Source of the DNA: Schmidtea polychroa
Lineage: Eukaryota
NCBI GenBank assembly: GCA_044892525.1
Contig: CM097886.1
Location: forward strand, 35,898,001 to 35,962,000
Direction of reading: 5' to 3'
DNA length: 64,000 nt
Position 1 is the stretch's first letter. Every line of letters begins with the position of its first letter. Positions 6,001-36,190 of the stretch are shown one piece after another. The position numbers were made by a program, and so were the translations under genes. The notes below the pieces were generated by a model. That model had not been told where the DNA came from and made no database searches. It was given only the letters and a program-made list of their open reading frames with translations.

Positions 6001-9000
6001 AGTCTGCCTGGAGGTCCAGCAGTAACAGTTATGATTCAAATCAATGGTAAAGAAACCAATGCTATGATAGACACCGGAGCTAATGTATCAGCGATAGCGA
6101 TTAATCAAATCCCCAGTAAACACTGGAAAAATATCGAATCAACAACAATTCACATCATAGCATGTAGTAAAGAAACAGTGGACGTGGTCGGAAGATGGTG
6201 GACTACATTGAGATACCAGGACAACGAAATTGAAACGTATTTGGCAGTAATACCAAAACTTAGCGTACCATGCATAATCGGAACGGATTTGATGCCAGAA
6301 TTGTTAAAAGAAGTCGTAATTGACTTAACAACCATGTGTTTAAAAGACAAAACCGGTAGAATATGCAAAATGAATGCAGTCATCAGATGTCCAGAAAAAA
6401 TAATAGTACCAGCAAAATCGCAGATGATTTGTCAGATAAAAGTGGATACGGGTATGGAAGGAGAAGTTATCTTTGAACCAAGCAAGTCATTCGAAAAGCG
6501 ACGAGAATTACCACTCGCAAGAGAAATAATCACAATAAACCAAGAAGGAGTGATACCGCTCAACATCACGAATTTCGAAGAGGAAGACAAAATCATTTAT
6601 GAGAACGAAAAATTGGGAAGATTGACCCCAATGATGGACATAGAATTACCGAAAGTGACCAACGAGATGATCAAAGATGATGAATTATGGACAATAGATA
6701 GTATGTTGTTGACGAATGATGAAAAGAAAAAATTACACCGATTGTTGGTAGAATATAAAGATATATTCGCCATCTCAGACTTAGACTTGGGTACATGCGA
6801 TGTTACCCTACATGCAATACCCCTCATAGATGAAACTCCAATTGCATTAAGACCATACAAGCTAGCAGAAATGCAAAAAGAAATAGCCGAAGCAGAAGTA
6901 CAAAAGATGCTGGACGCAAAAGTAATCGAACCAAGTTGCTCACCTTGGCAATTCCCAGTGGTCATGGTGAAAAAGAAAGATGGCACCCAACGATTCTGTA
7001 TCGATTATCGGAAGCTAAACGCAGTGACCAAGAGAGATACCTATCCATTGCCGGACATCAATGAGATGTTATTGATGTTGCAAGGGGCAGCATATTTTAC
7101 TTCTTTAGATCTAAAAAGTGGATACTGGCAGATTAAAGTCAAAGATGAGGACAAAGAGAAAACAGCTTTCACGTTGGGACGAGATCTATATCAATTCAGG
7201 AAAATGCCATTTGGACTGACCAACGCACCAGCATCATTTCAACGGTGTATGAACTTTGTCACCCATGGAATCAAACAATGTATGGTATATATTGATGATT
7301 TACTAATCTATTCAGCGACATTTGAACAACATCTAGAAGATATCCGAAACGTATTTATTAGATTAAGACAGTGGAAACTCAAACTCAAACCATCAAAATG
7401 CGATTGGGCAAAGGAAAAAGTCACGTTTTTAGGACACATAGTGTCAGCTAAAGGAAAGGAGCCAGATCCAAGAAACATTGAGAAAATAAAACTATGTCCA
7501 GCACCGAAAACTGTCACCCAAGTTCAGGAATTTCTAGGATTATGCGGATACTATCGCAAATTTATCAAAAATTATGCAGGAATTGCAAAACCAATCCAGG
7601 AATTAGTAAAGAAGGATATTTCGTTCATTTGGGAAAAAGAACAACAACAGGCGTTCGAAACGCTGAGAGATAAACTAATCGAAGCACCTATCCTCGTACA
7701 CCCAGATTTTAAGAAGCCATTTCTATTGGCAACGGATGCAAGCGGGTACGCGGCAGGCGCGATTCTGGGACAATTAGACGATGAGGGAAAAGAGAGAGTA
7801 ATCGGGTATTACAGTCGAACATTCAAAAAGCACGAAAAGAACTATTCGGTAACAGAACGAGAAGCATTGGCTATAATACAAGCTATCAAACACTTCCGAT
7901 ATTTACTATGGGGACATGAGATATGCATAACCACGGATCATCAACCATTAGTGTGGTTAGGGCAACATAAAGAAGCGTCCAGTAGACTGATGCGATGGGC
8001 CATGCAATTGCAAGAATACTCCCCATTTATAAAATTCAAAGCGGGAAGAGCAAATGCCAACGCCGATTGTATGTCAAGATTTATTTTCCCAGATTTGGTG
8101 GATTCAGAAATGCAACGCATATGCTTAATAGTAGCGGAAGATTTGGATTTCTGTCAATTACGAAAGGACCAACAAGAGGACGCGGAATTAAAACAAATTA
8201 TCGATTATGTAAAAACCGGAAAGACAGAGGTATATGCGAAAGACCAAAAATTAAAAGAACATATGGATAAACACCGACACCGATATATTATAGAGAAAGA
8301 TTGGTTGCTGATAATGGATGGGGAAAAACGATTAATGTGTATACCGGAAAACCGACGAAAAGAGTTACTAACGCAATATCACGATGGGAGATTGGGAGGA
8401 CATATGTCATCGAAAAAGACGTTAGCAAGAATGAAACAGAAATATTTTTGGCCTACGTTAACTGAAGATGTAACCGAATGGGTAAAAAATTGTCTAACTT
8501 GTGCAACCAGGAAGAATACTGGATCGAAATGGAAAGCACCTTTAACGCCAATGCCAGTACCAATAGAACCAATGACAATGATATCCATGGACGTAGTTGG
8601 TCCACTACCAGAGTCAGATAAAGGAAACGTTTACATTCTAGTGATCACAGACTTTCTTACGAAATTCCCAGAAGCATTCGCGATGCCAGACCAAAAAGCT
8701 AAAACAATCGCAAAAATTTTGGTAGAAGAGATATGTTGCCGATATGGAACACCAAAACAAATCTTAACCGATCAGGGAACTAATTTTATGAGTGAGATAA
8801 TGAGCGAAGTAACAAATTACTTCAAAATAGCAAAACTAAGAACATCTCCATACCACCCTCAAACCAATGGGATGACGGAAAGATTTAATGGAACACTTAT
8901 ACAAATGTTATCAAACTACGTTGACCGTCACCAACGAGATTGGGACGAATATATAAACCTATGTCTTATGGCGTACAGAATGTCGATTCACGCATCAACG

Positions 9001-12000
9001 AAAATGAGCCCATTCAAATTAATGTACGGAAGAGAATGTAACATGCCAATGGACCTGGAATACCAACCACCGATATCGCAGTATATGGAGATCGATGATT
9101 ATGTTACGAAATTCAAGGAAAGAATGCAAGAAATTTGGGAAACTGCGGGATTGAATATCAAGTTCTACCAGGAAAGTTATAAAGATTTACACGATCGAAA
9201 GAAAAACGTGAAGCAACATACGTTCCAAACAGGTGATTGGGTAATGATAGAAACCCCGGAATTAATTCCAGGAACCGCAAAAAAGTTACAACGCAACGGA
9301 AAAGGACCATATGAGATCTTATTCGTAGGCGAAACTAATGTAAGAGTGAAATTGGTAAATAACCCCTTTACCAGACCAATATACGTAAACGTGGCACGAT
9401 GCAAATCAATTCCAAAAACAGCCACTAGTCAACCAGAAGGCCGTACATTAACCACACGTTCGCAAACCTACCGAATGAACATGATGCAACAACTCGCAGA
9501 ACCGATCACTGGACGATTAGGTATCCAACCATCAGAAGCGGAAAAGATTGTAAAAGAGGTAAAAATTAAAATACCTGGATGGGCAAAAGATCGATTAGAT
9601 TTCGAAATATTAGGAGGATTATTGACGATGATCGAGAACTATGCAAATAGAGAAAGGACACACCCATTATTGCGAGTAGTCAAAAGCCAATGGCCAATAT
9701 TATTTACAATAACAGATCATTACGGAGACACACCATTACACAAACTCATGAAAGTAGGTAACAACGAGCAAATACTAGAAACAATAGAAGCATTTCACGA
9801 CTGCAAGCGATCAACAGAACAAACAAACAACCAAGGTTACACACCATTAATGATAGCCGCAAACAGAGGCAAAACAAAAGACATTATAACCGCATTACTC
9901 GATACCGGATCGAAAATAACTACACAAGACCACGAGCGGAAAAACGCTCTACATCATGCTATCGAAGGGAGAAGTACCGAGGCGTTCACGTCATTGATGG
10001 AACTACTATCATATGAGGACAATCGGGAAGTCGGAAACATGTATGATGGATTGTTAACAGCGATCAAAGAAAAACTGACGACAATTACCGAAATATTAAT
10101 TACATGGAGAAATCCAATTCGAAACGATTATATGATCAACGTAAACGAAGCGTTCACGAGAGGAGAGAACACGCTGATGAGAGAAGCTATGAAAGGACAT
10201 CATTTATTCGAAATCCCGAATCAATTACTAGAACGAGGGATAAAATTCACAAATCACAAAGACGAACAGTTAACAAAAAAGCGAATCGACACATTCGAAA
10301 AATCACTATTCCAATTTACTAACCAAGTACGAAATAAATATTGGGAAACGGTAAGTGTGTTATATATGATGGACACGATGAATAACATCCGCGAGAATTA
10401 CATGGATATTATCCAAATACTTACAGCAGAGGAACGAATCAATAATCCAAACGGAAAGAAAATGAAAATAAAGTATGAGAAATCCAGGGAATCAAAGTCA
10501 ACAACGAACCAAACGGTCACAAACAACGTCATCGAAACCAAATCAATGAGTATAGATCAAGAGGCAATAATACGCAAAGCAAAAGAAGTGTTCTTTGAGG
10601 AAATGCTAGAGCTGCCAGACGAAATAATATTGTCCAAAATAATAAAAGCCGTACACACATACGCAAGAGATCAAACCACGGGTTTAGATATCGGGAAAAT
10701 CAAAACCTTCTTGCCTCGAGCATTTACGATGGTAACGAAGGATTCCAGAACACCCCTACAACAAGCAATACTAGCGGCGAAAGAAAATAGAGCAATAACG
10801 ATCGTGAGAATCCTTGGAGAGATGGGCGAGGAAACCAACACGAAAAATGAACAAGGTGAAACCGCCATGATGTATGCAGCTATAACGAAAATACACCCAA
10901 AAACACTCCACATCCTACATCAATCAGGATCGAAACTAGACGAAAAGTCCAATGAAGGAAATTCCACCTTGGACTGGGCAACCATACAGCCAAACTTAGA
11001 AATGATCAGATTTATTTGCAAAAATGCGACAAAAGAAGAAGTTGAAAATATGTGCAAAAACACATCTCAGTTTCAATGGAATACGGTACGGAAAAATCTA
11101 GAAGCAATGAAATTATTATTAACCTGGAGAGTACCACAAAATAATAAATATGCGATAAATGTAAACGAATTCTACGAAAACGGAGAAAATGCGATGGTAA
11201 AGAATACCCTAACCAAGGGGGGGACACCTAAAATAATTTTAATAGTATTAAATAGAGAAGACCTAAAATTCACGCAAAATCAGAACGAGCAACAACGAAT
11301 TGGGAAACATCGTCGTATGCAATTGAGAGAGTTAGTTAAAGAATGGAATAGAAAGAGACATGCTGCAACGGGTAGAAAAGAGTTTGAATTCGAAGCAAAA
11401 TTAGCAAGAAACAGAGTGCTAACAGCATATCGCAGATTATTGAACGATATAAATGTCGAGGACGACATTTTAAACGACAGCGGGGGAGATAAACACGATG
11501 ACAATAACGGAAAAGGCCGAAAGGAGGATAAAGAGAAAAGAGAACAGGAGGAGGGTAAACCGGAAAACAAGGATTCGGATACGAAAAGAGAGGGAAACAG
11601 CCCGGGAACTAAGACCAAAGAGGAGGAAAAATCGAATAATGGAAAACAGAGGGTATGCCTACCTTTCACTAACAAAGAAATAGAGACAAATATGATATTA
11701 ATGATAATTATGCTTACCATGATAGAGTTAGTAACAGCTCAGGGAGGGACGAGAACGATAAAAGAAACCAAAGAAGCGGAGAATCAAGATAGCAAAGAGG
11801 ATGAACTAAAGCAAGAAAAGAAAAAGCAAGCACAAGAGCAGCAGTGGGATTTAAAGGAAGAATGGGACTTAAAGGAAAGGTGCATACTAGGAAGATGCAT
11901 GTCTAGAGCGTATCAGAAACTAGTACTGATAAATGAGGCCACAGAACCAATAACAGAAGTAAGAATACAAGAAGCATACCGAAATCGAGACGGGAAGAGA

Positions 12001-12693
12001 ATAACGAACGTCAAAGGAAAAGAGGTACACCTAGGAAAAGGTGGTGAAGTAGTAATAACGCAGATCCAACCTAGAAAAGAGCACAAAGTCTGTATTTCAA
12101 GATTAGGACCAGGCGAGAGATGCCATCAATATGTGACGCAGCAGCAGCCGCCGAAAGAATACACGGTTTGTATCTGGAGGAATGAATCAAAAAGAGAATG
12201 CCGACGATACCCGGGGAAAAGAGGAAAGAAAAGAAAAAACCACGACGAAAAGAACGAAGGAGGAAAGCACAAGAAAACTGGTGAGGAAGCTCAGGACAAC
12301 TATGTTTCGGAGGAAGAGATGGAAAAAATACAAAAGATGGCAAAGGAGGGTATGAACGAGGAAATAGCAAGAATACGGGAAAGGATGAAAGGAAATGGCA
12401 AAAGAGGAAACGAGAAAAGTACAGAAGCGATATCAACATTAACAAACAAGGAAAAACCAGAGAGTATAAGCGTGAAGCAGATGATGTGGATCAGTGGGAT
12501 AATAATAACAGGGGCATTCCTAATCATAACGGGGGGAACAATAAAAATAATTAAGGATAAACGACATCGCGGAGAACTGGAGATGACTCGAATCAGAAAT
12601 TTCCAACATCGAGTGAAACGACCAAGTGATATCAAACAAGAACAGTGGGTGGAGGCCTGGAACGCTCAGCGCCCTCCAAACTCACGTATATAG
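1..12693 (+). CDS. Giant polyprotein (Ubl x3, Bcl-2-like, Env, PR, RT, RNase H, IN, ankyrin, TM protein); 5' incomplete
   Basis: Frame is open from base 1 (RLQAEEERIKQ...); the track start at 64 is only a TTG. Motifs IDTGA, YIDD, TDASG, HDGRLGGH..C..C, DVVGP, TDQGTNF, TERFN, GPY. Confidence 0.95.
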   Translation, partial: RLQAEEERIKQERNQQRQEQPLRINMMKLVKDMKSQYCYNYGKSPRVVPMTEPEKVKEITTEMKTENSTTILKGNQRTQKIFWKKIKDKIEKEHNKAKTETEDENNKSEEQTSQLNHQMLQELESEETTIFERKKLKRVPRMRNLQINMMKRTKDVASSDEEEDYVSSLGGEILQPSEISEPPKGEIKEEESGNEITSESEDEDIEIKLRKAREEAIKQVAEILPVVVRNQEFIDVIPFRRFVQKVMKLERNEKDLIPNEEKSIIKNYMEKMKQADTTRYVIKIGTSRGLERMWIKNTVTDELFDWIREHLGSSRKKEYLYQYQGEQIKPDMHLVDALIWPGETQILKLHKEKQPANLYDWAKDAKAEYDFNIKLKLEQIKQCTLRRNLDKLIKQIQEQVEDNWDLLITRRAPAMYELMSRLRDTEMLRMSDWRTINLIHKYGRLKETQPQRLEITIWLPNEEKRRIKMSNQSTVDDLVSKINQEITEKVRSESSDGMVDDVVMMYDKIILRTEDDTSLSEMGMWDNHQIIRIVPMDEFRTRDVTYQKEIRDRMKTLYRKSTEIIEIHQQWLKEKELQGKITKLNTRSCRRTPWERVWNAESKEWEIRKGTFVETDIGETESESEEEEEEPPEYEEEARGQTSDDESETDVTSESENEARHIHAMRKKEREYADMDGEEATEAREREETERYKQLGDILAMGAKNQKRQVVALANIILKTSENIHNLRGMAKAIEEYRQYNEWYPEQLEQIIRKWRNQEWAQDTQERYHIQIKYPDKSIEELEVHPTTKIRELKKKLAYETPFHLQLFGKSLDDNADVGITPMRLEETNVLTMAETLGKPLKRKSKIIKPTKGSLSTPSPNKAPSKSNETEEVEEIILEDSDDEPGERSPLLVRWPTGAEMWTNNQPSTSYQQPTKLNIKEIIDNTTETETDEQFQKQREPTKVTPESQTDKIIDEWNEWLRNNDSSLPRTDNERNPNYENTREAGTMMEKRAKGRPKKQGEKSELKTKEQLKQEQGQVRLEKLDKIVWDLKEAQPTIERGEKWIRELLKDILIITNPQLRRLWQRKVASTEARQLWHTISGIIPKLIKEKTKTTKTDWDETKRVIEQLTTNANDDEHHLVVITYLMYNLMGLAARKIPNKQFANHVEMTVLIIENTIEPHIIRAGGWKRLIQAPRKNEQERSMQVRLKKLLNELEWELPMKDPASRKASINSLMMTMMIWMLCTSGATGFTIYDCDNMIMRDKYSLRDIEECRQASPNKLDIVRTKVTYHVYQESDFIRTQARECVVSKKVLAYYCGQYSYSTLILPGLDKEIVSIQREDCKELFRTGALKMHNGVTIHGQTGMIKTESVYVSGKVKSSDGSCNGGTYTIRGEVISGVVVIESYTVELKEYEAQFDANNYQMKTNPACKATENVCRTGVSTIIYEANTQKCRLQLLKSALFNEVKGEIYENENDEDGNDRVRMRNGKPMPPSPREKRLSTQKTPTALITDDPDLGMRFIKEKETTKCDSIVYKTNYAGIYMSRQIIDRAVGKIATEDVKLYLYANNKMDFLFHRGQTTLQKVYYDLIQNDCSLNKEILKTKLAIAITHPDNTMPSLPLPDGHFGRMVGEVMYTYQCTKTYARMPEKSILPEKRCANELEIRYKGQNRFVQPVTRIMNPVGFYPNLFNCSNAYGPLYERPDGKWMMLPGKTISEEPKKFGLIELATELDFKPIDVSNGGMYSPEDLETARLNVLFPARRESILSNMVTITGGTNYQSGPNYELLLSPDHFQQATSNMMKAMWGRFLVFGQMMAGILGIILIIQIVRVILTQMLACFDIYKREKKVNWKMIVGFLPFLAKTMVLHGHSKDIHRIKRLIKILTKIKGTDEEVGRRFRKVMYDEATRRQLKKNKPKFLDRFRSQSSNSDSDDDDNGNDKCLYPNRNPNEKPMETAPYWEKEKTNTWIANGSYIPPDIVGPQAALTMTQNMYPQLPSQPGMHYMPTRRTKSVDQADDVRTIAAMSLPGGPAVTVMIQINGKETNAMIDTGANVSAIAINQIPSKHWKNIESTTIHIIACSKETVDVVGRWWTTLRYQDNEIETYLAVIPKLSVPCIIGTDLMPELLKEVVIDLTTMCLKDKTGRICKMNAVIRCPEKIIVPAKSQMICQIKVDTGMEGEVIFEPSKSFEKRRELPLAREIITINQEGVIPLNITNFEEEDKIIYENEKLGRLTPMMDIELPKVTNEMIKDDELWTIDSMLLTNDEKKKLHRLLVEYKDIFAISDLDLGTCDVTLHAIPLIDETPIALRPYKLAEMQKEIAEAEVQKMLDAKVIEPSCSPWQFPVVMVKKKDGTQRFCIDYRKLNAVTKRDTYPLPDINEMLLMLQGAAYFTSLDLKSGYWQIKVKDEDKEKTAFTLGRDLYQFRKMPFGLTNAPASFQRCMNFVTHGIKQCMVYIDDLLIYSATFEQHLEDIRNVFIRLRQWKLKLKPSKCDWAKEKVTFLGHIVSAKGKEPDPRNIEKIKLCPAPKTVTQVQEFLGLCGYYRKFIKNYAGIAKPIQELVKKDISFIWEKEQQQAFETLRDKLIEAPILVHPDFKKPFLLATDASGYAAGAILGQLDDEGKERVIGYYSRTFKKHEKNYSVTEREALAIIQAIKHFRYLLWGHEICITTDHQPLVWLGQHKEASSRLMRWAMQLQEYSPFIKFKAGRANANADCMSRFIFPDLVDSEMQRICLIVAEDLDFCQLRKDQQEDAELKQIIDYVKTGKTEVYAKDQKLKEHMDKHRHRYIIEKDWLLIMDGEKRLMCIPENRRKELLTQYHDGRLGGHMSSKKTLARMKQKYFWPTLTEDVTEWVKNCLTCATRKNTGSKWKAPLTPMPVPIEPMTMISMDVVGPLPESDKGNVYILVITDFLTKFPEAFAMPDQKAKTIAKILVEEICCRYGTPKQILTDQGTNFMSEIMSEVTNYFKIAKLRTSPYHPQTNGMTERFNGTLIQMLSNYVDRHQRDWDEYINLCLMAYRMSIHASTKMSPFKLMYGRECNMPMDLEYQPPISQYMEIDDYVTKFKERMQEIWETAGLNIKFYQESYKDLHDRKKNVKQHTFQTGDWVMIETPELIPGTAKKLQRNGKGPYEILFVGETNVRVKLVNNPFTRPIYVNVARCKSIPKTATSQPEGRTLTTRSQTYRMNMMQQLAEPITGRLGIQPSEAEKIVKEVKIKIPGWAKDRLDFEILGGLLTMIENYANRERTHPLLRVVKSQWPILFTITDHYGDTPLHKLMKVGNNEQILETIEAFHDCKRSTEQTNNQGYTPLMIAANRGKTKDIITALLDTGSKITTQDHERKNALHHAIEGRSTEAFTSLMELLSYEDNREVGNMYDGLLTAIKEKLTTITEILITWRNPIRNDYMINVNEAFTRGENTLMREAMKGHHLFEIPNQLLERGIKFTNHKDEQLTKKRIDTFEKSLFQFTNQVRNKYWETVSVLYMMDTMNNIRENYMDIIQILTAEERINNPNGKKMKIKYEKSRESKSTTNQTVTNNVIETKSMSIDQEAIIRKAKEVFFEEMLELPDEIILSKIIKAVHTYARDQTTGLDIGKIKTFLPRAFTMVTKDSRTPLQQAILAAKENRAITIVRILGEMGEETNTKNEQGETAMMYAAITKIHPKTLHILHQSGSKLDEKSNEGNSTLDWATIQPNLEMIRFICKNATKEEVENMCKNTSQFQWNTVRKNLEAMKLLLTWRVPQNNKYAINVNEFYENGENAMVKNTLTKGGTPKIILIVLNREDLKFTQNQNEQQRIGKHRRMQLRELVKEWNRKRHAATGRKEFEFEAKLARNRVLTAYRRLLNDINVEDDILNDSGGDKHDDNNGKGRKEDKEKREQEEGKPENKDSDTKREGNSPGTKTKEEEKSNNGKQRVCLPFTNKEIETNMILMIIMLTMIELVTAQGGTRTIKETKEAENQDSKEDELKQEKKKQAQEQQWDLKEEWDLKERCILGRCMSRAYQKLVLINEATEPITEVRIQEAYRNRDGKRITNVKGKEVHLGKGGEVVITQIQPRKEHKVCISRLGPGERCHQYVTQQQPPKEYTVCIWRNESKRECRRYPGKRGKKRKNHDEKNEGGKHKKTGEEAQDNYVSEEEMEKIQKMAKEGMNEEIARIRERMKGNGKRGNEKSTEAISTLTNKEKPESISVKQMMWISGIIITGAFLIITGGTIKIIKDKRHRGELEMTRIRNFQHRVKRPSDIKQEQWVEAWNAQRPPNSRI
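835..1050 (+). other. Ubiquitin/SUMO-like domain 1 in polyprotein
   Basis: YVIKIG...LFDWIREHLG...YQYQGEQIKPDMHLVDALIWPGETQIL resembles the beta-grasp pattern; weakest of the three. Confidence 0.4.
1354..1605 (+). other. Ubiquitin-like domain 2 in polyprotein
   Basis: LEITIWLPNEEKRRIKMSNQSTVDDLVSKI...MMYDKIILRTEDDTSLSEMGM matches the Ubl pattern (TV.DL..KI; L.DD..LS..G). Confidence 0.6.
2299..2499 (+). other. Ubiquitin-like domain 3 in polyprotein
   Basis: YHIQIKYPDKSIEELEVHPTTKIRELKKKL...LQLFGKSLDD aligns by eye with ubiquitin [27 protein letters not shown]...LIFAGKQLED. Confidence 0.7.
3061..3525 (+). other. Bcl-2-like helical domain in polyprotein
   Basis: BH2-like IEPHIIRAGGWKRL preceded by amphipathic helices at BH1 spacing; the canonical NWGR is absent (DEHHLVV). 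The upstream part (NPQLRRLW...EARQLWHTIS) could alternatively be MADF/Myb-like. Confidence 0.6.
3628..5448 (+). other. Internal signal peptide + envelope (class III-like fusion) glycoprotein + TM anchor
   Basis: Hydrophobic LMMTMMIWMLCTSGATG then FTIYDC..YSLRDIEEC..YQE..REC..YCG: Cys spacing of chuvirus-type/retrotransposon-borne glycoproteins. NxS/T sequons (NCS, NYQS-like region); TM FLVFGQMMAGILGIILIIQIV. Confidence 0.8.
6001..6372 (+). other. Retropepsin aspartic protease
   Basis: VMIQINGKETNAMIDTGANVS and CIIGTDLM. Confidence 0.95.
6840..7560 (+). other. Reverse transcriptase (Ty3/gypsy)
   Basis: SPWQFPVVMVKKKDG, RFCIDYRKLN, LDLKSGYWQI, MPFGLTNAPASFQR, VYIDDLLI (YIDD at 7288-7299). Confidence 0.97.
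7700..8085 (+). other. RNase H (Ty3/gypsy)
   Basis: LATDASGYAAGAIL, YSVTEREALAI, TTDHQPL, NANADCMSR. Confidence 0.95.
8125..9480 (+). other. Integrase (HHCC, DDE core, GPY module)
   Basis: HDGRLGGH...CLTC; SMDVVGPLP; LTDQGTNF; GMTERFN; GKGPYEI. Confidence 0.95.
9721..11250 (+). other. Ankyrin repeats, two clusters (~9721-10250 and ~10741-11250)
   Basis: GDTPLHKL, GYTPLMIAA, KNALHHAI, RTPLQQAI, GETAMMYAA, GNSTLDWAT. Confidence 0.85.
11686..12693 (+). other. C-terminal type I membrane protein: signal peptide, FN3-like/Cys module, TM, short tail
   Basis: MILMIIMLTMIELVTA/Q; VVITQIQPRKEHKVCI resembles FN3 strands E-F; TM WISGIIITGAFLIITGG; ends NSRI*. Confidence 0.6.
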
Positions 12694-17696: not shown

Positions 17697-17734
17697 AATT
17701 GCGGGACGCAATTTTGATGGGTCCCCGAGTGATT
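17697..17734 (+). promoter_or_regulatory. Conserved pre-LTR hairpin and non-canonical PPT region
   Basis: AATTGCG-GGA-CGCAATT then GGGTCCCCGAGTGATT directly before TGTTGG; counterpart at 47291-47328(-). Confidence 0.7.
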
Positions 17735-18068
17735 TGTTGGGCTGAGTCGAGAATTTAATCGTTGAAAAATAAGAAAGTAGGGAAGTAGAACATTAAGAAA
17801 AATAAAAATAAAATAAATAAAATCAGAAATAAAATAGAATAGGATATAAGGAAAATAATAATTAAGACATAAGAATTAAAACAAAAAATAAAATTAAGAA
17901 AAGATTAAAATAGAACAAGTTGACAAATAAATAAAGAGGAATTCAAGAAATAATAAGGAAATTAAGGAAATAAATAGAAAAACATATTAAAAATAAAGAA
18001 AATAAGGAAAAAACAACCTAAAAACAAGAAAATTATATTAAATTAATAGAAATAAGCGGTACTCAACT

Positions 18069-18105
18069 CTGATTGGTCCGCACAAATAAGAATTTGATAT
18101 ATATA
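18069..18105 (+). promoter_or_regulatory. CCAAT box (reverse, ATTGG) and TATA-like element in LTR A
   Basis: CTGATTGG 18069-18076 and ATATATATA 18097-18105; copy B has CTGATTGG and TATATAT at the equivalent position (46761-46788). Confidence 0.5.
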
Positions 18106-18128
18106 CAACTACCAAAAACATTAAATTT

Positions 18129-18204
18129 ACTGTTAACCCCGAGCATTTCATAGGTAAGAAAGAATGTTTACTGTTTTCACTGTTAACCCCGAGCATTTCA
18201 TAGG
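18129..18204 (+). repeat. 26-bp direct repeat (period 50) bracketing a putative 50-nt GT-AG intron (18154-18203)
   Basis: ACTGTTAACCCCGAGCATTTCATAGG twice; first copy followed by TAAG giving GTAAG. Confidence 0.75.
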
Positions 18205-18627
18205 ATCGACACTACTAGCCAAGCAACCGTCATTCAGAAAACTCCACATCTATTCAAAACCAGTTCAGAGACCGAAATACCATTCATCACAATAATCAAC
18301 ATCCAACGGACCACCATTAGAACTATTTGGAACGAACAACATTGAACTTTGACTCAGCCTAACAATAGTAAGGGGTATTTCATTTGTTTATAGATTTATT
18401 TAAGTATTTGCAAAGCTAATAGTAATGTTAAATATTAACGATTAAATATTTTAGTTAACTCTCTTCATTTGATTCTCCATTTTAATAACTTTAACGTATT
18501 GATGGAATTTGTATTATTTAAGTATTTCAGAATTAATAAAATATTTTTATCCAGATGTCCGTATTTTATTTGAATTAAAGATTTTATAAATTTTCATTTA
18601 ACGAGTAACGTGGAGTTGAGATACTCC

Positions 18628-18819
18628 ATGTCATGGTATGAGGTGCCTTCGGGAGCTCAGCCGGTGGACATGGAGTATTTCAATCACGCAGCTAGATTGG
18701 GCCGAAATGTGAAGGCTTCTTCACGGGTCCTATCGCTGAAGATGCGACTGAATTATCACAATGGGTTATGGTTAAAAGAATCGCTGGTAGACAATGATTT
18801 CACAAAGATAGTCGTGTGA
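18628..18819 (+). CDS. Small LTR-encoded ORF-a (63 aa)
   Basis: VPSGAQPVDME and LKMR motifs recur in a frameshifted ORF in LTR B (46227-46441). Confidence 0.45.
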   Translation: MSWYEVPSGAQPVDMEYFNHAARLGRNVKASSRVLSLKMRLNYHNGLWLKESLVDNDFTKIVV

Positions 18820-20324
18820 ATGAAGGGATTTTCAAGGATTTGCACAGTGATTGAGGGCGTCGCATTCTTTTTTGTTTTTCTTTCGTCAAGTCGTTTTCGT
18901 AAATCTTACCCCTATTGAAAAATGAGATCCAGACAACGATTTAGTGAACTTCGTCAAAAATAACGACATCTCATAGTACGCTTCATCTGGAAACATGGTT
19001 TTATCAATTTAATTGCGACAACGTCTATTTGCCGGACTCAGTAGAACTGATTTCGTATGAAATTCCGTTATCATAGACCCGAGGTCATCTAGCCTGTCCA
19101 GATTGCATGTCAGGTTACGAAAGTATTCTAAAAACTTTAACTAACTCGAAACTATAAAATGCGAGATTCTACGAAAACCTCTCTAATATTATAATCAGAA
19201 AGTTTTTATAGACTTAGTTATTTCAAAAATTATAACAGGTAAAATATCACCAAATTTAATTAATAACATTTGTTTCTACAATAAGAGCCAGGTCATCACT
19301 GTATATATCCAAATTATTGAACCTGAGAGAAATTTTCGAATGGCTAAGGACAGGTTCCATCGAGACGGCATTACATCTGAATAGGAAAATCCGAGTAGAA
19401 TGACGCGAGTAGTAAAATGCTTCAGCATTTGGTGGAATTATTCCCTCGACGATCACTGAAAAGATCCAATAAATTTCCAAACGATGGTGATCATTCACAC
19501 AAGTTGATAAGGGTAAAATTCCGCGATGAGAACTGACGGCAGCATAAATCATGATTCAAATAAATCACTGTGCAGAGAAAATCATATGACAGCAGGATCG
19601 ATAAAATCACCGTGAAAATGGCATACACCAAGTGAGTGAGATAAGATAGTAGCCATACACGAATCCATGTGGTGAGAGCACAGAATATCGGACTAGCACA
19701 CATGATAGTCGCGACACGGGACATTCACAATAGGTCGATAATGTAATCAACTAGTTGACAGTAGTATCCGTAAATTTGGACATGTGTTATGACCGATGAG
19801 ATATCCCATTAGGGTGTTCAAGTAATGGCTGATGTAAACTCATCACATATTCTCAGACAAATGGTAGACAATATAGATAATCACATTCACTACCGAATTA
19901 AAAGTGCACTTCCAATAACAAATTTCGAATCAAAAAATATGTTGAGAATAGCGATAGTAACTTGTTTTTAATAAATTTAAATAGATAATTTATAGCAAGG
20001 TTTAGTCGCGTACTATAATGTCCCTCTACTAAAGCGTTATTATATTATTTCACCAATATTATATTTACACCCTATTAATTATTACGCCCCTCAGGTATAC
20101 AGTTAGATCAATAGAGAGTCAAAGTTAATAGCATGCGTCAAACCGATGGCATTTGGTTAAATAAACTGTTTCAACAAATAAGATCCGTGGTAAAACCGGA
20201 TTGTAGAATGAGTTTTCCTTTTTTTTTTTTTCGTCGGTCAAGCATCCACGAATGGCCGTGGGTCGTATCTAATTTATTCCAAAATCGTATGTTCTACATT
20301 TCATTAGTATTATTTATAGCAAGC

Positions 20325-21077
20325 ATGCTACCAACCACTAAATCAGCATTACGGCCGTGCTTCTCGTGCGCGGATAAAAATACGGTGATAAAGGACCTAC
20401 AAACTCAGATTGGACGTTACAAGAGGAAGATAGACGAGCTGGAAGGGACATGGTTTAGTCCCGCTCGGATGAAAGAGATCCAAAAGAAGCTCGATCGTAG
20501 CGAGCATTGCCGGGACGCGCTAATATCTGAGAGCCGTGCCCAAAGAAGTCTAATCCGAGAACAATCCGAGGCACTGCATAAGGTTTACGTGCAGGCGGCT
20601 ACAACCCGAAAAATAGTGCAGATTCCCATCCGAGAGGCCGATGACATCTTTCCGCCTCATCACAACCTTTCCTCGAATCCATCTCCACCGTTCAAGAGAC
20701 CGTGCCGAGACTGCGTCGAAACCGAATTGTCCCCCAAGCGACCAGATGTTGTCATCACGGGTACCAGTAAGCCCCCCACTGCTAGTCCATCCGTATCAGT
20801 CACCCTTCTGCAAGTGGCCTCTTCAAGCAAACCCAAGCGCAAACAACTCTCTCGTGCAGAGCGCAAGAAGAGACAGCGCGAGCGCGCCACTACAAAGCCA
20901 AACATCCCATCCATAGAGGATTCAACCAGCGGTGGCAACTCTCACGTGTCCATCGACCTAACAACGGGACCCTCGGCACGAATCATATCAGCCGCTGGCG
21001 TAATGTGGGAAGAGAACGCTTCCGAGTTTTTTAACCTCGACGAATTATTCGCCGACACTGAATGGGAGAAACAATAA
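20325..21077 (+). CDS. LTR-encoded ORF-b: CxxC, coiled coil, basic NLS, acidic/aromatic C-terminus
   Basis: LRPCFSCADKN shared with 43656-44420(-); NLS KPKRKQLSRAERKKRQR; ATG 20325 is preceded by TTTATAG. Confidence 0.8.
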   Translation: MLPTTKSALRPCFSCADKNTVIKDLQTQIGRYKRKIDELEGTWFSPARMKEIQKKLDRSEHCRDALISESRAQRSLIREQSEALHKVYVQAATTRKIVQIPIREADDIFPPHHNLSSNPSPPFKRPCRDCVETELSPKRPDVVITGTSKPPTASPSVSVTLLQVASSSKPKRKQLSRAERKKRQRERATTKPNIPSIEDSTSGGNSHVSIDLTTGPSARIISAAGVMWEENASEFFNLDELFADTEWEKQ

Positions 21078-21200
21078 AATCCCAGTGGTGGTCAGGATGA
21101 GGAACAAGGATCCGATCTATGTTGATTATGATGTTTTCTCTTCTTTCGACAAACGTTAGTAAAGTGTACAGCTGAATCCTTGTGTCATAACATTGAAATT

Positions 21201-21206
21201 AATAAA
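21201..21206 (+). terminator. Candidate LTR poly(A) signal
   Basis: AATAAA followed by T/GT-rich sequence, 120 nt after ORF-b; not verified in B. Confidence 0.35.
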
Positions 21207-21342
21207 TCTTGTTGTATTACACGTCTTCGTTCATGAATAATTAGACTTTAATTAAGTGGGTCGAGTAGAGAACCCGCGAGATCTAGTGAGAAATTCCCAA
21301 TTTGCATTCAGCGAATCCCGATAAGCGGTTGTGTAAGGAAAT

Positions 21343-21484
21343 GGACGTAAGCCCTTCTATCGGCAGTCGTGAATGGGAAGTCGAGGCCTCAGCAAGGAGT
21401 AGTTTTAAGGCAGAAGCTCACCTGCTTGCTGGCGTCTCGCCTGCATAGTGCAGTACCAACGTGAAGTGATTCACGGGCACTATG
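21343..21484 (+). ncRNA. Conserved cis-acting structured RNA near the LTR 3' end (copy A)
   Basis: Three helices covarying across LTRs A, B and C; invariant AGTACCAA bulge at 21452-21459. Confidence 0.8.
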
Positions 21485-22733
21485 TTGGAAGAAAGTTATG
21501 TGGGGTTTCACTCCAGGTTGACAAATCGGTGGCACCTTTTATTCGAGATGGACAATCAACCCTTAGACCCGTCAACGTGGTAGAGTGGTCAGCCGAGGTG
21601 TAACCCCAACAATGCTATTGCTGTTTTATGTATATTTTTGTTAATACTTTGTCATTTTCCTTATCCCAAGAGCCAAGAGTTCCGACGACTAGAGCGGCAA
21701 AATTGGTTTTGCATTTGTTACTTTTTCCAGTCTCGAGTGCTAATGTCCTATATATATTTGTAGTTGTCTACTCTAGGCGTCTGGAAGTTCTCTTCGTGAT
21801 CATAAGGTACTTAGATGTCTAGTATGCTTAATTTGTTATTACGTTTTGTTTTTATGATAAGGTCTGGTCGTAAGCATGTGTCGATACCAGGGGTTGGCAC
21901 GTAGAGTCTACTTAGAATCCTCTAGATATAAGTAACCCGGATACCCGCCATGTTTTTTATGGAACCGAAAACCGGGTAATTTTAGACTGGTATCCGGTTA
22001 ATTTCATTTAAATAATTTTTTCCATTATTTCAAATTAAATGCAAGAGCCGAATCGGTGTTCTTAAACGACTAACGTCTTTGAACGACAAAAAAGGGACAG
22101 CACTTAGCGGCCTATAGATTTCGAGATGAGCGAATGTATAGATTCGGATTATTTTGAAAGGATGCAGCTGCAAATACTAGCGATTAATTTTTGCGCTGGC
22201 GAATTAGAGATTTCCAAAAATATTTTTAATCTACATTGCATTGACCGGCCGATGACCGCGGCCCGAGGAGACTGAGCTTTCCTCGCGATATCCGTCGTTT
22301 TATGGTTAATCAATCCTTTTGTACCTGAAACATTAGTATATATTGCCTGAAAATCGAAAAATACGATTTAAGTTAATCGTTAGGCGAGAAGTCGGCTAGA
22401 CATCATTCAATAAGCACGAAGACACGTCAAGAATCGCGAACCTTCAATGTATTTATCTTTAAAAATATTTTAATTTTGAATTATCCTAAGCGTCTAAAAA
22501 GGTGTATGATATGCATGATCGTGATCTCAATTTATTTTTTTTCACTCTTTTTTGATTGATAAAATTTTAAAAAAATATTTAAATATTAGTATGACATTTT
22601 TAAAAGCTGATAGTCTTAAATAAAAATCCGTATCATTGTTGCAATAAATAATAATTATTTGTCACATTTATTATTACATTTTTCATAAAAATTCGGAAGA
22701 AAATTCCATATTTTTTGTAAACACTTGATTTGA

Positions 22734-22808
22734 CACATTTTGACCCCAGCGACATTTTGACCCCAGCGACATTTTGACCCCAACGACATTTTGACCCAAC
22801 GACATTTT
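22734..22808 (+). repeat. 17-bp tandem repeat, ~4.5 copies
   Basis: GACATTTTGACCCCA(G/A)C units. Confidence 0.9.
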
Positions 22809-22874
22809 AATTGTTTTTTATGCTCTGTTTTTATACAAAAATTACAATACTTATATATATTTTCAACTCTCAGA

Positions 22875-24215
22875 ATGACTTCAAAGAAATCTAAGGTCTG
22901 GAGTTTCTTTGTGAAAGATATTACTTCAGAAACAGCCAAATGTACCATTTGTTCTACAATTATGAAATGCAAAGGAGGTTCCACATCGTCGCTTGGAAAA
23001 CATTTGAAACTCAAACATAACACCGATATAAACCAAAATAATGACAAGTCTACCGAATTAAATCCACCAAAGAAGATGAAATTGCAAACAGGCTTAACTG
23101 ACATGCTTAAATTTGTCAACAGAAAAAAAGTAACTCTCCCAGAATGTCTAGCCAAATGCGCTGCTTACGACGGGTTTTCAATTAGAACAATATCGAAATC
23201 GTCCGTAATTAAAGACCATATTACTTTTCGGGGTTTTGAAATGCAAAAAAGTCAATCAACTATTAAGGCTATGATTCGATAATTTTGTAATTCAAAAAAA
23301 CTTGAACTTAAAAAGAAGCTATTAAAATGGAAAAAAATGGGCGTAAGATTTTCTAAAACTGTAGATGAATGATCAAATATTAAACAAACGATTTTTAAAT
23401 ATTACGTTACATGACTCTAAAGTAGGATATGCATTAGGGTTGTCAAATATTAAAAACACATGTGACGCTTTAGTATTAAAACAAATGGTATCAAGAAAAT
23501 TAAGCGAAGTGTTAATCGATTTAAACCGCCTAAATCTATATAATGATATAAACATTTTGTCAATTAAAGATTTATTACATGCTTTAATCCTTTAGAGCTG
23601 GGTGTATAGGAATTAAGCAAAAGACTCGGAAGGTTTTTAATTTTTATGTTAGAACAACTTTAAAAAATGCAGACTTCTATAAGTTTGAAGTTGTATACCG
23701 TTTTAAAAACAAGAATCTTAGAACAAAGAAACAAAGATCTTGTACCTTTGTTGATATATTTACAAGCATCGAAACTTCCAAAAACAGTTTTCGATTAAAT
23801 TTAGGCATACAGCTCTAGATCTAATGTAATGTAAGCATAATAAAAAGGCTATATCCACAAATACCGCAAGATACAGATGATAATAGAAATGTGTAAAAGG
23901 ATAGTACAGTAGAAAATGTAGAAAACGGTGGTAATAAGTTTTTAATTCAACAACTAAAAAATAGCATTTCTTCGATAAAGGCTGTTGCCAACCTTGATGA
24001 AACAAATTTAAAAATACATTTAAAAAATTTATAATCCACTGGCAAAAGAAGTTCAGTTTTGAAAAATCTGTATAATTCTTTATTGTCTATAAAGCCCACT
24101 TCAACCGAAAGTGAACGTGTACTTTTCCTTGACCAATAATTTTTGTTCAAAAATTAGAAGTTCAATGAAATATAACACATTAGATTAGTTAGTGTTATTA
24201 AAATACTACTTTTTA
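22875..24215 (+). pseudogene. hAT transposase pseudogene
   Basis: BED finger VWSFF..CTIC..GGSTSSLGKHLKLKH; C-terminal SIKPTSTESERV; multiple stops and frameshifts. Confidence 0.85.
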
Positions 24216-31115: not shown

Positions 31116-31564
31116 GAATTGCATACCGCATCATCTTCATGAAAGCCAGATGTAAAGAGATCGAAAGACATGTGAATTTCCTCGAATCATAATGTTTGGT
31201 TGTTTACCCATTGAAATATGGAAGAGAGTTGGACACTAGGACAAACTTCAAGTTTGGGTGACGACCATTCTCAAATTTATTCAGTTTGTTGATCTTTTGA
31301 CAATGTCTAAGAGGCTGCTCAGGTCGAAGTAAATTGATTTTCGGGATTTTAATTTATGACAAGATTTTGGAAAGTCCAATCCATGGTTCAAATCTACTAT
31401 AAACATATAAACTGTTATATAATTTCCATTCATTCAGTTAGTTGCTCTTGTAGTAGCTGTTATTAATCCATATAATTGAAAATTGCGGTTTAGTTTGAAT
31501 ATTACGTAATATTCAATAAACATTTTTTATATTATCTAAATCAATACAAAATCAGTTTAAATTT

Positions 31565-33364
31565 ATGGGTTTCCGTATAAATAAGTCTGACGTCTGGGAC
31601 AATTTTGATAAAATTTCGGCGACGATGGCACAATGTAAGCTCTGTGCACAGCAAATAAGTAGGAGTGGAGGTACTACGACTGGTTTGCATGCACATTTGC
31701 GTAGCAAACATGGTGGATTAACAACATCTTCAAATACTCAAACACGATTGACTGCATTGATTACAACACAAAGAAATTGTCCGAGTAGTAAACAGGAAAA
31801 AATTACGGCTGCTGTTGCGAGATTGATTTCCGAAAATATGTTGGCAATTTCGCTCGTGGAATCGAAATCCTTCCGTGAATTGATGGCGATAGTGGAGCCA
31901 GGATATCGTCCTCCGTGTCGTCAGACGATGACAGCACGACTAACAGCAATGCAAAATAATTTAGTGGTCAAAATGTCGAAATATATCCATGAAAATGTCA
32001 AGGACATTGCGATCACTACCGACATCTGGACTAGTGTCACCAATGAAGCTTATCTCAGTTTTACTGCAAGCTACATTGATACAGACTGGAATATGATGAC
32101 GCCTGTTCTTGGAACAATTCTGATGACTCAACGCCACACACAAGCCGTCATTGCTGACCATCTATGTAGTATAGCTGATGAATGGTCAATAAAAGAAAAA
32201 ATTGTTGCATGTGTCCATGATGGTGCATCCAACATCAATCATGCAGGCAATCTCAATGGATGGTTTGACGTTCACTGTGCGGCGCATAAATTGCAACTTT
32301 GCATCAATAATGCAATGGGCTCCCATGTTGTCACGGATCATCAAATTTCCAAATGTATATCAGCTGCAGCACGACTAGTCGGACATTTCTCACATAGCCC
32401 AATGGCAACGGGGGAGCTCCTGAAAAGACAGTTGTCCATGGACAAGGATAAAACGCCACTAAAACTTATTCAGCACTGTAAGACTCGTTGGAACAGCGTC
32501 TATGACATGTTTGAACGACTAGTAGAACTGAGATGGCCAGTAGTTGCAGTATTGAGCGACAAAAACGTGGTGAAATTGAACGATGCCAAAACGCTGGACA
32601 TGAAGGACGATTATTGGCAACTGATGACTGAATTGCTCCCTGTTTTAAAAGCGTTGCAGATCGTGACGTCCGTCATGTCAGCCGAAAGCCAGCCATCAGC
32701 CTCTTGTGTTTTTCCCATGTTATGGGGACTCGTGAAAAATCATTTAACCATTAAAGAAGAAGATTCTGACATTATGGGTGAATTTAAGAGAGATCTTGCT
32801 AAGAATATTTCACGTCGTTTTGGATTAGAAAATAATGAAACAGCAAAAAACGAATGCGTTGTTGCATCAATTCTCGATCCGATGTATAAGCATCTTCCTG
32901 GATTTCCGGACGATTTCAAAAAGCTGGCGTATGAAAATGTCCGTCATCTCATCAGACAGCTGCCAGATTGCCCCGAACAGCCGAAGACGAGTCGGGATGA
33001 AGATAACATGATCCCACCAACTAAAAGATCACGACCAAATCATGATGCAGTTATGTTTCTCCTTGGTGATAGTGCAGCACAACAGGCGCCAGAGGAATCC
33101 GACTTTGAATATTACGTCAAATCATCATGGTCGACAAACTCAAGTGAAACAGCCCTGGAGTGGTGGAAACATAATATGAAACTTTTCCCCAAAACAGCTA
33201 TTCTTACCCGGAAGTTCTTATGCATTCCTGCAACCTCAGTGCAATCGGAACGATTATTTTCGGCCACTGGACGTCTGATAACCAAGCTTCGTAACCGGCT
33301 CCTTCCAGATCATGCAGAATCTTTGGTCTTTTTGAATATGAACCAGGACTTGTCTGATATTTAA
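31565..33364 (+). CDS. hAT transposase, 599 aa, apparently intact
   Basis: BED finger; TTDIWTS, HDGASN, CAAH, TRWNS, SVQSERLFS; dimerization domain. Confidence 0.95.
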   Translation: MGFRINKSDVWDNFDKISATMAQCKLCAQQISRSGGTTTGLHAHLRSKHGGLTTSSNTQTRLTALITTQRNCPSSKQEKITAAVARLISENMLAISLVESKSFRELMAIVEPGYRPPCRQTMTARLTAMQNNLVVKMSKYIHENVKDIAITTDIWTSVTNEAYLSFTASYIDTDWNMMTPVLGTILMTQRHTQAVIADHLCSIADEWSIKEKIVACVHDGASNINHAGNLNGWFDVHCAAHKLQLCINNAMGSHVVTDHQISKCISAAARLVGHFSHSPMATGELLKRQLSMDKDKTPLKLIQHCKTRWNSVYDMFERLVELRWPVVAVLSDKNVVKLNDAKTLDMKDDYWQLMTELLPVLKALQIVTSVMSAESQPSASCVFPMLWGLVKNHLTIKEEDSDIMGEFKRDLAKNISRRFGLENNETAKNECVVASILDPMYKHLPGFPDDFKKLAYENVRHLIRQLPDCPEQPKTSRDEDNMIPPTKRSRPNHDAVMFLLGDSAAQQAPEESDFEYYVKSSWSTNSSETALEWWKHNMKLFPKTAILTRKFLCIPATSVQSERLFSATGRLITKLRNRLLPDHAESLVFLNMNQDLSDI

Positions 33365-36190
33365 AAATAAAATCGAATTTAGTACTTACTTTTAAATGTT
33401 TACACTTTGGAATCTTTGTTTTTGATATCTATGGTTTCGATATGTTTATGTTTAATTTTAAAATAAGGCCGCCGCAGCACCGGAAAGTTTTATTTTGATT
33501 TATACTTTAGTATATACAGGGAAAATTACCGAAGAAATTGAAAACAAATTTACTTATATGCTTTAACTTTTTGCATAAACAGTCAGTTCATATTCTCCTT
33601 GTGTGTGGTATAAACTTTGAATAAAACTAATTATACTATACACGTGCGTGAATAGTAATAATGTAAGTAGCTTTGGTTATGCAAAGTGCAAACGATAATC
33701 GGTTTAAAATCGGATTTATACAAACGATAATCGGATTGCTCGAAAAACCGATATTAACAACCCTAGTTTTAACCTTCTCAAGAGTTGTGAAACAATCATT
33801 GCATTTATATAATATAATATGCCACGAAGAGAAAAAGCAAAAGCAAATAAAAATACATTTTGAACAGCCTACAGTTTTCGCAAAGGCTGAAATAATACAA
33901 TTTATCATCTGTTGGAATTCGAGCTGTGATAATCATAGAGAAAGACAAGTCACATGCATGACGTTTGAACGTACTTTTATTAAATAAGGACATACGTATG
34001 AAGGCTTAGTTTCACTCGCGAGTTTGAAAACATTCATCGCTGATAAAATATAATTTATTTTTATTTTTATGCACTTTATGTAAGTATATATGCTTTCAAC
34101 ATTTTCTGATCCATAATTTTTATTTCTGTGATCATTTTGATGACGTTTGTAAATTTAAAGATGAATATCTTACTGAAAGTTCTACTTTAATACAATGGGA
34201 GACATTTGTTGTAAATCAATTAGCAGTCAAAAATCACTTTTTTTAGATTTTTTCGAATCATTTGTCGTTTTTAATGGTGATCTTTTAATCATAGCAACTA
34301 TTTTCCTAACTTTTTAATGACCGGTTCAATCATTACATTGCTGATGGTTATATCAAATGTTTCCTCATTTAAAATATTGTCGACTGCAAAATAATATTCG
34401 TCATCTTCACAATCTTTGTCGCTAGACCAGTAATTATTTGTTTATTTGTCGTTATTTTCATATTTCTCACGTCATTTGTTTTCATTTTCAAATTCAACTA
34501 ATTCCAAATGGATAGATGGTGCTTTATAGAACCAAAACTACGGCTAGATGTATGGTATTTTGATCAAAACAATAATTGTTGATCTGTGGATAAAATCTTT
34601 CCAACTTTATTTATCACACTTGTTCCATCGATCATCAAAGCCGGATGGAGTTTGTGGGCGGCCCTGGGCCCAATTGACATTACTGTTATCAAGATTAAAT
34701 TTAAACAATGAAAGTCTTTCCTTGATTAGTAAATTTTCAGTTTTCATTTTTTTTCATATTTTAAACTTAACATTTTTAAGATTAAAGTTCTGAAAATATA
34801 TCTACTTATAGTTAAATTCTCTAGTTGTTTGTAATACTGCTTAATTTTTGTATAATTTTTCAAGGAATTCATAATTTTTATATTTTAAAAATTCTTCATT
34901 TTTATTCATTTTCAGTTTAGAATTATTGTAATCCCGAAATCTCGGGAATAATTTAGTAATTTAGATTGTAAATTAGGATTGTAAACCCGAATGTCTTATC
35001 AATAAGTGTTATGTATAAAAATTATTTAAAAATATTATTTTTAATATTTTATATATTTAAAATATATATTGAGACAAATTTATTACAATAATTCTGTTTT
35101 GTTTTAAAAATTAGATTAAGAAGCAAGTTTTTCAAATTGTGTATTAAATGAATATTTGGAATTTAAATGATTTCTTCAGATGTAACTGGTGACCACTCCA
35201 AATTGTATTGACCACGCAATTAGTATTGTTACGAGAAGCAAAACTCTCATTAACTTCCCAAAAAAACGATATAGGAGTTTCTGGATTTCAATATATGACG
35301 TTTCTATGGTAAGTCACACAGAAACCAAAATATGGTTAGGTGAAGGCTGTTAGGTGGAAATCAATAGCTAATAACTGTTCGATTTATTGCTGGTTGATGA
35401 AACAGAGACTGTGGAAAGAAACAAAACTAATACATAACAAAGGAATGATAGATAACATTCATGGTCAAGAAGTCGATATCCAAGAACTCAGTATGACTAA
35501 ATAAGGAAAACATGAAAGATTTATAGTATTCGAAATCAGGGTACAGAAACTGTTTACTGATGTTTATGACTCGGGCATATCAAAAGAAGATATTATCACG
35601 AAAGGAATTCACAATGATCGTATTAATTAAGTATTAACTACAAAACTAGAAATGTAAATAGAAGAAACAAGAATCTGGATAGAGAAATGAAAGACACGAG
35701 AGATATAAAGGGTAATGAAAGAATCTATGCATATTTATGTGTAACGGGCTAAAGAGAAGATAATAAAAGAATGAAAAACCAACAGAATGTGTAGACAAAA
35801 GAGAATTCCAAAATAGTAGCAATATGTAGATCGGCGAAATTATCCAGATATTATACCATTCAAAAAGAGCCAACCTACAGTTGGGGTTTAAACCCATCGA
35901 AGAAAGAAAAATATTACCAGAACAATGTTTTTGTTGTGGTGAAAAAGGACATTTGAATGTCCTCTAAAGAATAAATGTCTCATCTGTGGGAAGGAAGTAC
36001 ATTCTATTTAATGAAAGCAAAACAATAGAAATTTTCGAAGGATAGCCTGATTTCATGAGAAAGCAGGAAATAAAGAAGACAAAAATGCGGCTATAAATGA
36101 GGTCGAATATGAAGACTTTTGGTGGGTTACTGGTGGTTGAATGTTCAAGTGCTGTTACCAGCGTAACCCAGATTACAACATTGTTTTCCA

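Follow-up and report, generated by a model that had tools for sequence, protein, structure and literature searches.

The selection and loading of a tRNA primer by LTR elements have been worked out for a few retroviruses and for the yeast Ty elements. For HIV-1, the available portions of two reports describe a U5/PBS segment with an A-rich loop, a primer activation signal (PAS), and a tRNA-like element (PMC11181671, PMC11251516). Ty3 binds its primer in a bipartite manner, with split tRNA contacts (available portion of PMC5371799). The giant Gypsy elements of planarians, Burro and GYPSM1, are about 30 kb long and possess an env-like domain between gag and protease, TRAF/MATH, and ankyrin; the available portion of that account covers the proteins, without LTR RNA structure or primer (PMC6431247).

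The window analyzed here is a stretch of 64,000 nucleotides from Schmidtea polychroa. It contains a three-domain RNA (D1, D2, and D3) near the 3′ end of an LTR, before the primer site for tRNA-Pro(UGG). As in the HIV-1 segment, to the extent covered by the available portions of those reports, a structured RNA precedes an 18-nt PBS and carries unpaired complements to the anticodon loop and the T arm. In contrast to HIV-1, the element is of the Gypsy type and uses tRNA-Pro, and the anticodon-matching bulge is located 112–167 nt from the PBS, in a hairpin of its own; no likeness of sequence or fold was found, and the contacts are putative here. Like Ty3 (as described in the available portion of that report), it is a Gypsy-group element with candidate primer contacts beyond one contiguous PBS, but it possesses a full 18-nt PBS, and the extra putative sites are placed in a covarying three-domain fold inside the LTR. 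By analogy, the module would most plausibly work like the HIV-1 U5/PBS segment or the split primer contacts of Ty3.

A literature search found no description of the three-domain RNA, and the available portions of PMC8532177 and PMC11410931 hold nothing on it; the supplements of Grohme et al. 2018 may describe LTRs. The covarying three-domain RNA that marks the primer end of Burro-type LTRs is real and apparently undescribed. A single genome harbors this RNA family, which has no Rfam match, in thousands of copies and in 55 or more diverged lineages. The family combines strong covariation with a very short list of fixed unpaired letters, and its length of about 150 nt makes it accessible to probing in vitro. 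If the CCAA bulge described below does read an anticodon, a T-box-like tRNA recognition would have arisen in an animal retroelement; if not, the RNA would still offer a convenient model of the packaging leader in the largest LTR elements known, and its presence would help to find where LTRs end.

Host elements and primer binding site

A 17-kb inverted repeat at 70–85% in the window represents two related elements, A and B, in facing orientation, each of which encodes a long polyprotein. The features of the elements and LTRs are as follows.

1–12693, forward strand: polyprotein of element A, open at the window edge
17735–21611, forward strand: 3′ LTR of element A, 3,877 bp, identical to its own 5′ LTR upstream of the window
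21490–21611, forward strand: LTR end of element A, a long terminal hairpin (folding prediction only), ending in CCAACA at 21611
43121–47290, reverse strand: 3′ LTR of element B, 99.95% identical to its 5′ LTR, with a 4-bp target duplication
Ending at 36120, reverse strand: LTR C, with no PBS behind it at this locus

The polyprotein of element A comprises a fusion glycoprotein, protease, RT, RNase H, integrase, and ankyrin repeats and is followed by a RING/TRAF ORF; the target duplication of this element is 4 bp (ATGC). Elements A and B are Burro-type env-bearing giant Gypsy LTR elements. The features examined for this class were a length of about 30 kb, LTRs, an in-frame env-like domain before PR-RT-RH-IN, ankyrin, and TRAF/MATH, and all of these were found. 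Within the available portion of the Burro/GYPSM1 account, the likeness extends to size, position of the env-like domain, TRAF/MATH, and ankyrin (PMC6431247).

An identical 18-nt PBS lies behind the 5′ LTRs of lineages A, B, and C. This PBS is exactly complementary to the 3′ end of a genome-encoded tRNA-Pro(TGG), and the genome contains 1,058 exact copies of the site. In the 5′ LTR of element A, a 7-nt spacer separates the LTR from the PBS. Among 30 copies (L438–L467), the spacer between the final CA of the LTR and the PBS was 7–8 nt (TGATTTT in 16, TACAAATT in 13, and TAATTTT in one). The corresponding retroviral spacer is usually 2 nt, and the integrase end processing may differ from that of retroviruses.

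Layout and distribution of the three-domain RNA

The RNA occupies positions 110–270 nt before the PBS, and the part reported first lies 185–270 nt before the end of the LTR of element A. Its components in the window are listed below.

21344–21368, forward strand: D1 of element A, with a 3-bp outer stem, a 4 × 1 internal loop, a G-C pair, a 1-nt bulge, and two C-G pairs
21355–21361, forward strand: D1 loop of element A, UUCUA plus 1–2 variable nt, putatively T-loop-like
21369–21382, forward strand: D1–D2 linker of element A, the PAS position in other lineages; no T-arm complement in A
21383–21438, forward strand: D2 of element A, a long hairpin with covarying outer and inner stems and a variable apical loop
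21417–21422, forward strand: 3′ strand (CUCACY) of the conserved internal loop of D2 in element A
21440–21488, forward strand: D3 of element A, two covarying stems around an 8-nt bulge (21452–21459)
21456–21459, forward strand: CCAA, the last four letters of the D3 bulge, near-invariant
43224–43381, reverse strand: three-domain RNA in the 3′ LTR of B, model score 130 bits (B lineage in the training set)
36176–36331, reverse strand: three-domain RNA in LTR C, 115 bits (C lineage in the training set)

The initial annotation had placed the structure at 21343–21427 and described one string in each of A, B, and C, each followed by GT(A)GAA. These strings are present at 21344–21368 (forward strand) for A, within 43353–43374 (reverse strand) for B, and at 36300–36325 (reverse strand) for C, each with GTGAA or GTAGAA behind it; this continuation is not fixed, as A-type lineages possess AGGTGT, TAGTAT, GAGCGT, and others in its place. 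The bulged hairpin of A also exists, with its loop corrected to the 7-nt TTCTATC closed by a C-G pair, and at the bulged position (21352) all four bases are found among other lineages. As for the extent, D1 falls inside the proposed interval, but the structure continues to 21488, leaving the well-supported D3 outside. Alignment of A, B, and C revealed a more strongly kept block just past the end reported at first, which folds into a hairpin with an 8-nt bulge in all three.

A pattern for D1 plus D2 matched the genome 3,751 times versus 2 for a reversed control, and a D3 pattern 2,955 times versus 3 for its control, so the strings are not due to chance. All 30 sampled exact tRNA-Pro PBS copies had the RNA upstream, with model scores of 98–141 bits. 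From pattern and similarity matches, 169 instances with both anchors were kept; 116 were distinct, and these fell into 55 clusters of less than 85% identity. An alignment of 49 rows was built without reference to structure; L130, L316, L323, L325, L341, and L349, six clusters that had deletions or whose homology was doubtful, were excluded. The 49 rows were selected on the D1 loop and the D3 bulge, and the invariance of these two parts in the alignment is therefore a result of selection. Two sets free of this selection were used for the unpaired letters: 30 copies picked by the PBS only and 30 copies picked on D1 and D2.

In viral contigs, at least 120 matches to the D3 pattern were obtained, and none of the 80 scored was genuine; the 29 viral and 13 metagenome matches to D1 plus D3 patterns likewise included none. 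The best scores were 15.9 and 13.5 bits, compared to 115–133 for true copies, indicating that these matches are due to chance. At the gathering score, Rfam gave no match in the window or in 20 diverse loci, and the two weak matches at 21200–21700 were both irrelevant.

Evidence for the fold

The structure tested consists of 31 pairs in three domains and was drawn from the first lineages seen. Over the 49 lineages, 81.7% of 1,489 cells pair, compared to 64.3% after shuffling (0 of 500 shuffles as good) and 35–39% in slid controls, and double-sided change occurs in 27 of the 31 pairs. In a tree test, the number of compensated branches for six pairs of D2 and D3 exceeded that of all 11,776 other column pairs, and for seven further pairs it was reached by 3 to 36 of these. 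The fold of D2 and D3 is shown by this covariation. G-U cells outnumber A-C cells (162 versus 76), which favors the sense strand.

D1 behaved differently. No D1 pair stood out in the tree test on the 49-row alignment. When D1 was re-anchored by type, its inner R-Y pair reached 4.0 compensated branches, more than any of the 203 other column pairs; the outer stem was not significant in a swap control (143 of 2,000), and its pairs also failed the tree test. RNAalifold on the 49 rows predicted D2 and the lower stem of D3 but not D1, and among seven minimum-energy folds of whole leaders, D1 was fully formed in one and partly in one. Sequence constancy and a single pair are thus the main support for D1, which folding predictions show as marginal. 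The z values of single-sequence folding were unremarkable for A (0.33) and B (−0.56) and strong for C (−5.35).

Covariation was thus found in D2, D3, and one inner pair of D1 and not in the outer stem of D1. The initial view of a compact RNA in the LTRs holds as far as a conserved structured RNA is concerned; its pseudoknot and its CUCA-loop hairpin do not. The partners named for the D1 loop are non-homologous (AAGGAG and TAGGAG in an arm of D2, ATAGAG in the linker), and at homologous columns the central C-G pair of such a pseudoknot was present in only 17 of 49 rows, with no pair showing double change. The second hairpin (GCAG..CTCA..CTGC) had 69.5% of its cells paired, one of its four pairs occurred in 24 of 44 rows, and its pair 76–90 had 19 double-change cells; it is not supported and conflicts with the covarying D2 fold.

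Conserved unpaired letters

Among the PBS-picked copies, the D1 loop begins with TTCTA in 28 of 30, and the CCAA at the end of the D3 bulge is present in all 30, as is the D2 strand GCTCAC(C/T)T, a motif that itself served as the anchor of the comparison. Ninety distinct copies picked by D3 included 28 without a pattern-detectable D1; TTCTA was present in 48 of the remaining 62. The first four letters of the bulge differ in 8 of the 30 PBS-picked copies. In the copies picked on D1 and D2, CCAA was at the scored place in 28 of 30, whereas 17 differ somewhere from AGTACCAA; of the two exceptions, L480 keeps CCAA after an upstream deletion, and L472 has lost it. The first bulge letters vary while CCAA is kept, pointing to a constraint on CCAA and not on the GUAC palindrome. 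Dimerization by a kissing loop through GUAC fails for the same reason, as GCAC, GUUC, AUAC, GGAC, UGAC, and GUGC are found in other copies. A switch of the codon in the bulge was also considered and rejected: 45 matches with another base at the first C of the codon (control, 28) were mostly single changes in known lineages.

In the D1 loop, U, U, C, and A stand at the places of U54, U55, C56, and A58 of the tRNA T-loop, followed by 1–2 free bases; position 4 of the loop is U, where the three tRNAs compared have a purine. The available portion of PMC4810234 describes the U54–A58 pentaloop frame in tRNA. Two further motifs are complementary to the primer. The linker of 35 of 55 lineages (shuffled mean, 7.8) contains a complement of the T arm, GAACCC or a wobble form of it, and GGAC(C/A), complementary to the variable loop, is found upstream of D1 in 24 of 55 lineages (background, 6 of 153 windows).

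Match to the tRNA-Pro primer

The RNA lies within the LTR, shortly upstream of an 18-nt PBS that matches a host tRNA at its 3′ end. From the sequences, we infer a primer-handling function: the RNA may be a leader, a cis-acting module of the genomic RNA that helps to capture and position the host tRNA-Pro(UGG). Of the explanations considered, this is the one we favor, tentatively, with its chances slightly below even. The stems would then serve as scaffolds displaying CCA-A in the D3 bulge, and CCAA would pair with U33-U34-G35-G36 of the primer anticodon loop, as the HIV-1 A-rich loop does with tRNA-Lys3. The GAACCC linker would pair with the freed T-arm strand and act as the primer activation signal in most lineages, and the UUCUA loop of D1 would fold as a T-loop for a tertiary or protein contact. 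We also infer a U5 placement of the module from its position. Since the module is part of the LTR, at least one end of the genomic RNA carries it; a location in U3 would make the precedent of Ty3 applicable.

The UGG anticodon of the primer reads the codon CCA, and U33 is opposite the A that follows. Of the five unpaired motifs that are conserved, three are exactly complementary to the free part of the primer, in its variable loop, T arm, and anticodon loop; a count of three was reached in 1.6% of 20,000 shuffles, a figure to be read with the fact that the choice of the five motifs was made with the data already in view. The duplex of the linker with the T arm is predicted at −9.0 kcal/mol versus −5.1 for shuffled linkers, with 0 of 300 as good, which is not a probability because the rows are related. 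Against shuffled tRNA, 19 of 300 were as good for the linker, the only element approaching significance. The duplex energy of the D3 bulge was unspecial (67 of 300 shuffles as good), with the best site scored at gene positions 35–39, and the D1 loop and the D2 strands paired worse than with shuffled tRNA (284 and 281 of 300, respectively). The complement of CCAA occurs in 45% of shuffled tRNAs, a match common by chance since it has only four letters. GGUCC and GGGUUC are also present in tRNA-Lys, and two of the three matches are thus not proline-specific; the control panel of host tRNAs comprised Lys and Arg. The T-arm complement at the PAS position is found in 30 of 49 lineages and absent in 19, element A included. 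Every PBS seen is that of tRNA-Pro, and no lineage with another primer was found, so that no natural primer switch tests the reading. The link to the tRNA is modest.

Alternative explanations

The module might instead be a packaging or protein-docking signal whose loops bind Gag/nucleocapsid, RT, or a host protein, the tRNA matches being coincidental. Its position, its multi-hairpin build, and its retention in all sampled lineages fit a retroviral psi-type leader, and the D1 loop and the D2 internal loop are without complement in the primer. Nevertheless, the module is within the LTR and upstream of the PBS, while retroviruses usually have their core packaging signals downstream of it; its kept loops expose no G, which nucleocapsid zinc knuckles favor; and the possible dimerization letters, the GUAC palindrome, are not kept. 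We consider this explanation possible but rather unlikely.

A stricter version of tRNA recognition would make the module an RNA-only tRNA reader. The anticodon of tRNA-Pro(UGG) would meet, in D3, the proline specifier codon with a purine on its 3′ side, and the D1 T-loop and the linker would clamp the elbow and the T arm; the element would thus select its primer much like a bacterial T-box its tRNA, by convergence. Stem I of the T-box, according to the available portions of its descriptions, likewise displays a codon, with a purine after it, in a side bulge and has a T-loop-like pentaloop nearby (PMC7583486, PMC4810234). Within the same portions, the differences are the absence here of an S-turn opposite the bulge (one base is there), of a conserved second T-loop, of an antiterminator, and of an Rfam match, in addition to the host being a eukaryotic retroelement (PMC7583486). 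Membership in the T-box family itself was rejected on the S-turn, second T-loop, antiterminator, and Rfam, and GT(A)GAA is not conserved. The convergent reader seems to us doubtful.

Another candidate is a cis switch that masks the PBS until the primer is loaded, with UUGG at the entrance of the element's own PBS as the pairing partner of CCAA and the linker. UUGG stands there in all 30 copies (TGG by selection, the preceding U not) and has no other fixed place. In the predicted folds of B, H, and one A-type leader, the linker is paired with the PBS, and the linker–PBS duplex is predicted at −8.4 versus −7.4 kcal/mol, with 1 of 300 as good. However, the linker fits the T arm of the tRNA better than the PBS, and UUGG is predicted to be already paired in most leaders; covariation between CCAA and UUGG is invisible, as both sides are fixed. 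A masking switch is accordingly judged improbable.

Control of RNA processing or translation, either by U1 snRNP at GUAAG of D1 suppressing a polyadenylation site or by internal initiation for the RING ORF, is very improbable. GTAAG is found in D1 of 23 of 55 lineages, AATAAA lies 153 nt before the D1 loop in element A, and the RING ORF stands after the PBS. On the other hand, GTAAG is absent in 32 of the 55, and AATAAA has no fixed position across the 50 lineages with enough flank. Being inside the LTR, the site would occur at both ends and presumably could not alone distinguish them.

The new ribozyme proposed in the initial annotation is the least credible explanation. The 3-bp stem and 7-nt loop of D1 are taken by us to resemble P3/L3 of a self-cleaving HDV-like ribozyme, and a G six or seven nt later would correspond to P1.1. 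This G occurs in 41 of 55 lineages (23 of the 28 with the bulge and 18 of the 27 without it) and shows no covariation. Only 4–5 nt lie between the outer and inner stems of D1, leaving no room for J1/2 and P2, and a P2 of at least 5 bp is found in just 18 of 55 lineages, at scattered places. Rfam gave no ribozyme match, no consistent HDV P2 was found, and to our knowledge tRNA-primed LTR replication needs no self-cleavage. According to the available portion of the HDV-like fold description, the spacer is required; the likeness covers a short stem, a 7-nt pyrimidine-rich loop, a possible extra G-C pair, and a long hairpin thereafter, whereas P2 and the J1/2 spacer, and hence a nested double pseudoknot, are lacking here (PMC4908430). 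Core patterns of the hammerhead, hairpin, and twister ribozymes were present in 0, 0, and 4 of the 55 lineages, respectively, with no relevant Rfam match, and self-priming is dismissed by the presence of a full tRNA-Pro PBS. Contigs of three presumed-RNA runs and one other gave no useful start, end, or joint.

Additional observations

Outside the three domains, a small hairpin with the loop TTGGACCA is located 25–45 nt before D1 in B- and D-type lineages (L031, L108, L117, and relatives). Its TTGG could also pair with the CCAA of D3; the A, C, E, and H types are without this hairpin. In the L338–L341 type, the D3 bulge and upper stem are nearly the same as the LTR end plus spacer, by coincidence or an old duplication.

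Both 3′ LTRs are preceded by segments (17697–17734, forward strand; 47291–47328, reverse strand) with no polypurine tract. In its stead, there are a small hairpin, a GGG(T)CCC near-palindrome, and TGATT. The two segments are 82% alike between the elements while their flanks differ, and they are candidates for an unusual plus-strand priming or dimerization site.

ORFs without a Pfam match are found inside the LTRs at 20115–21077 (forward strand), 43656–44420 (reverse strand), and 36504–37091 and 37137–37622 (both reverse strand); those of A and B have a common N-terminal stretch with CxxC. CCAAT- and TATA-like boxes near 18062–18105 and a GTAAG donor-like site near 18153 were noticed by eye in the LTR of element A. 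Directly after the PBS and before gag, element A encodes a 160-aa RING-finger ORF (L165:5431–5913), with a counterpart in B. LTR pairs of some RNA-bearing lineages are only about 14–16 kb apart, compared to 26 kb for A and B (G000:C1, 5.73–5.74, 5.99–6.00, and 19.49–19.50 Mb), and possibly belong to non-autonomous elements.

The tRNA genes are arranged in long tandem arrays: tRNA-Pro(TGG) in 475-bp units with 2,164 pattern matches (L085, G000:C1 near 130.9 Mb), tRNA-Lys(TTT) in units of about 424 bp, and tRNA-Arg(TCG) in 278-bp units (L366, L389). The window also contains a hAT transposase ORF at 31520–33364 (forward strand) with a BED finger and a dimerization domain, a second, broken BED-finger transposase at 22761–23500 (forward strand), and a 17-bp tandem repeat at 22735–22808.
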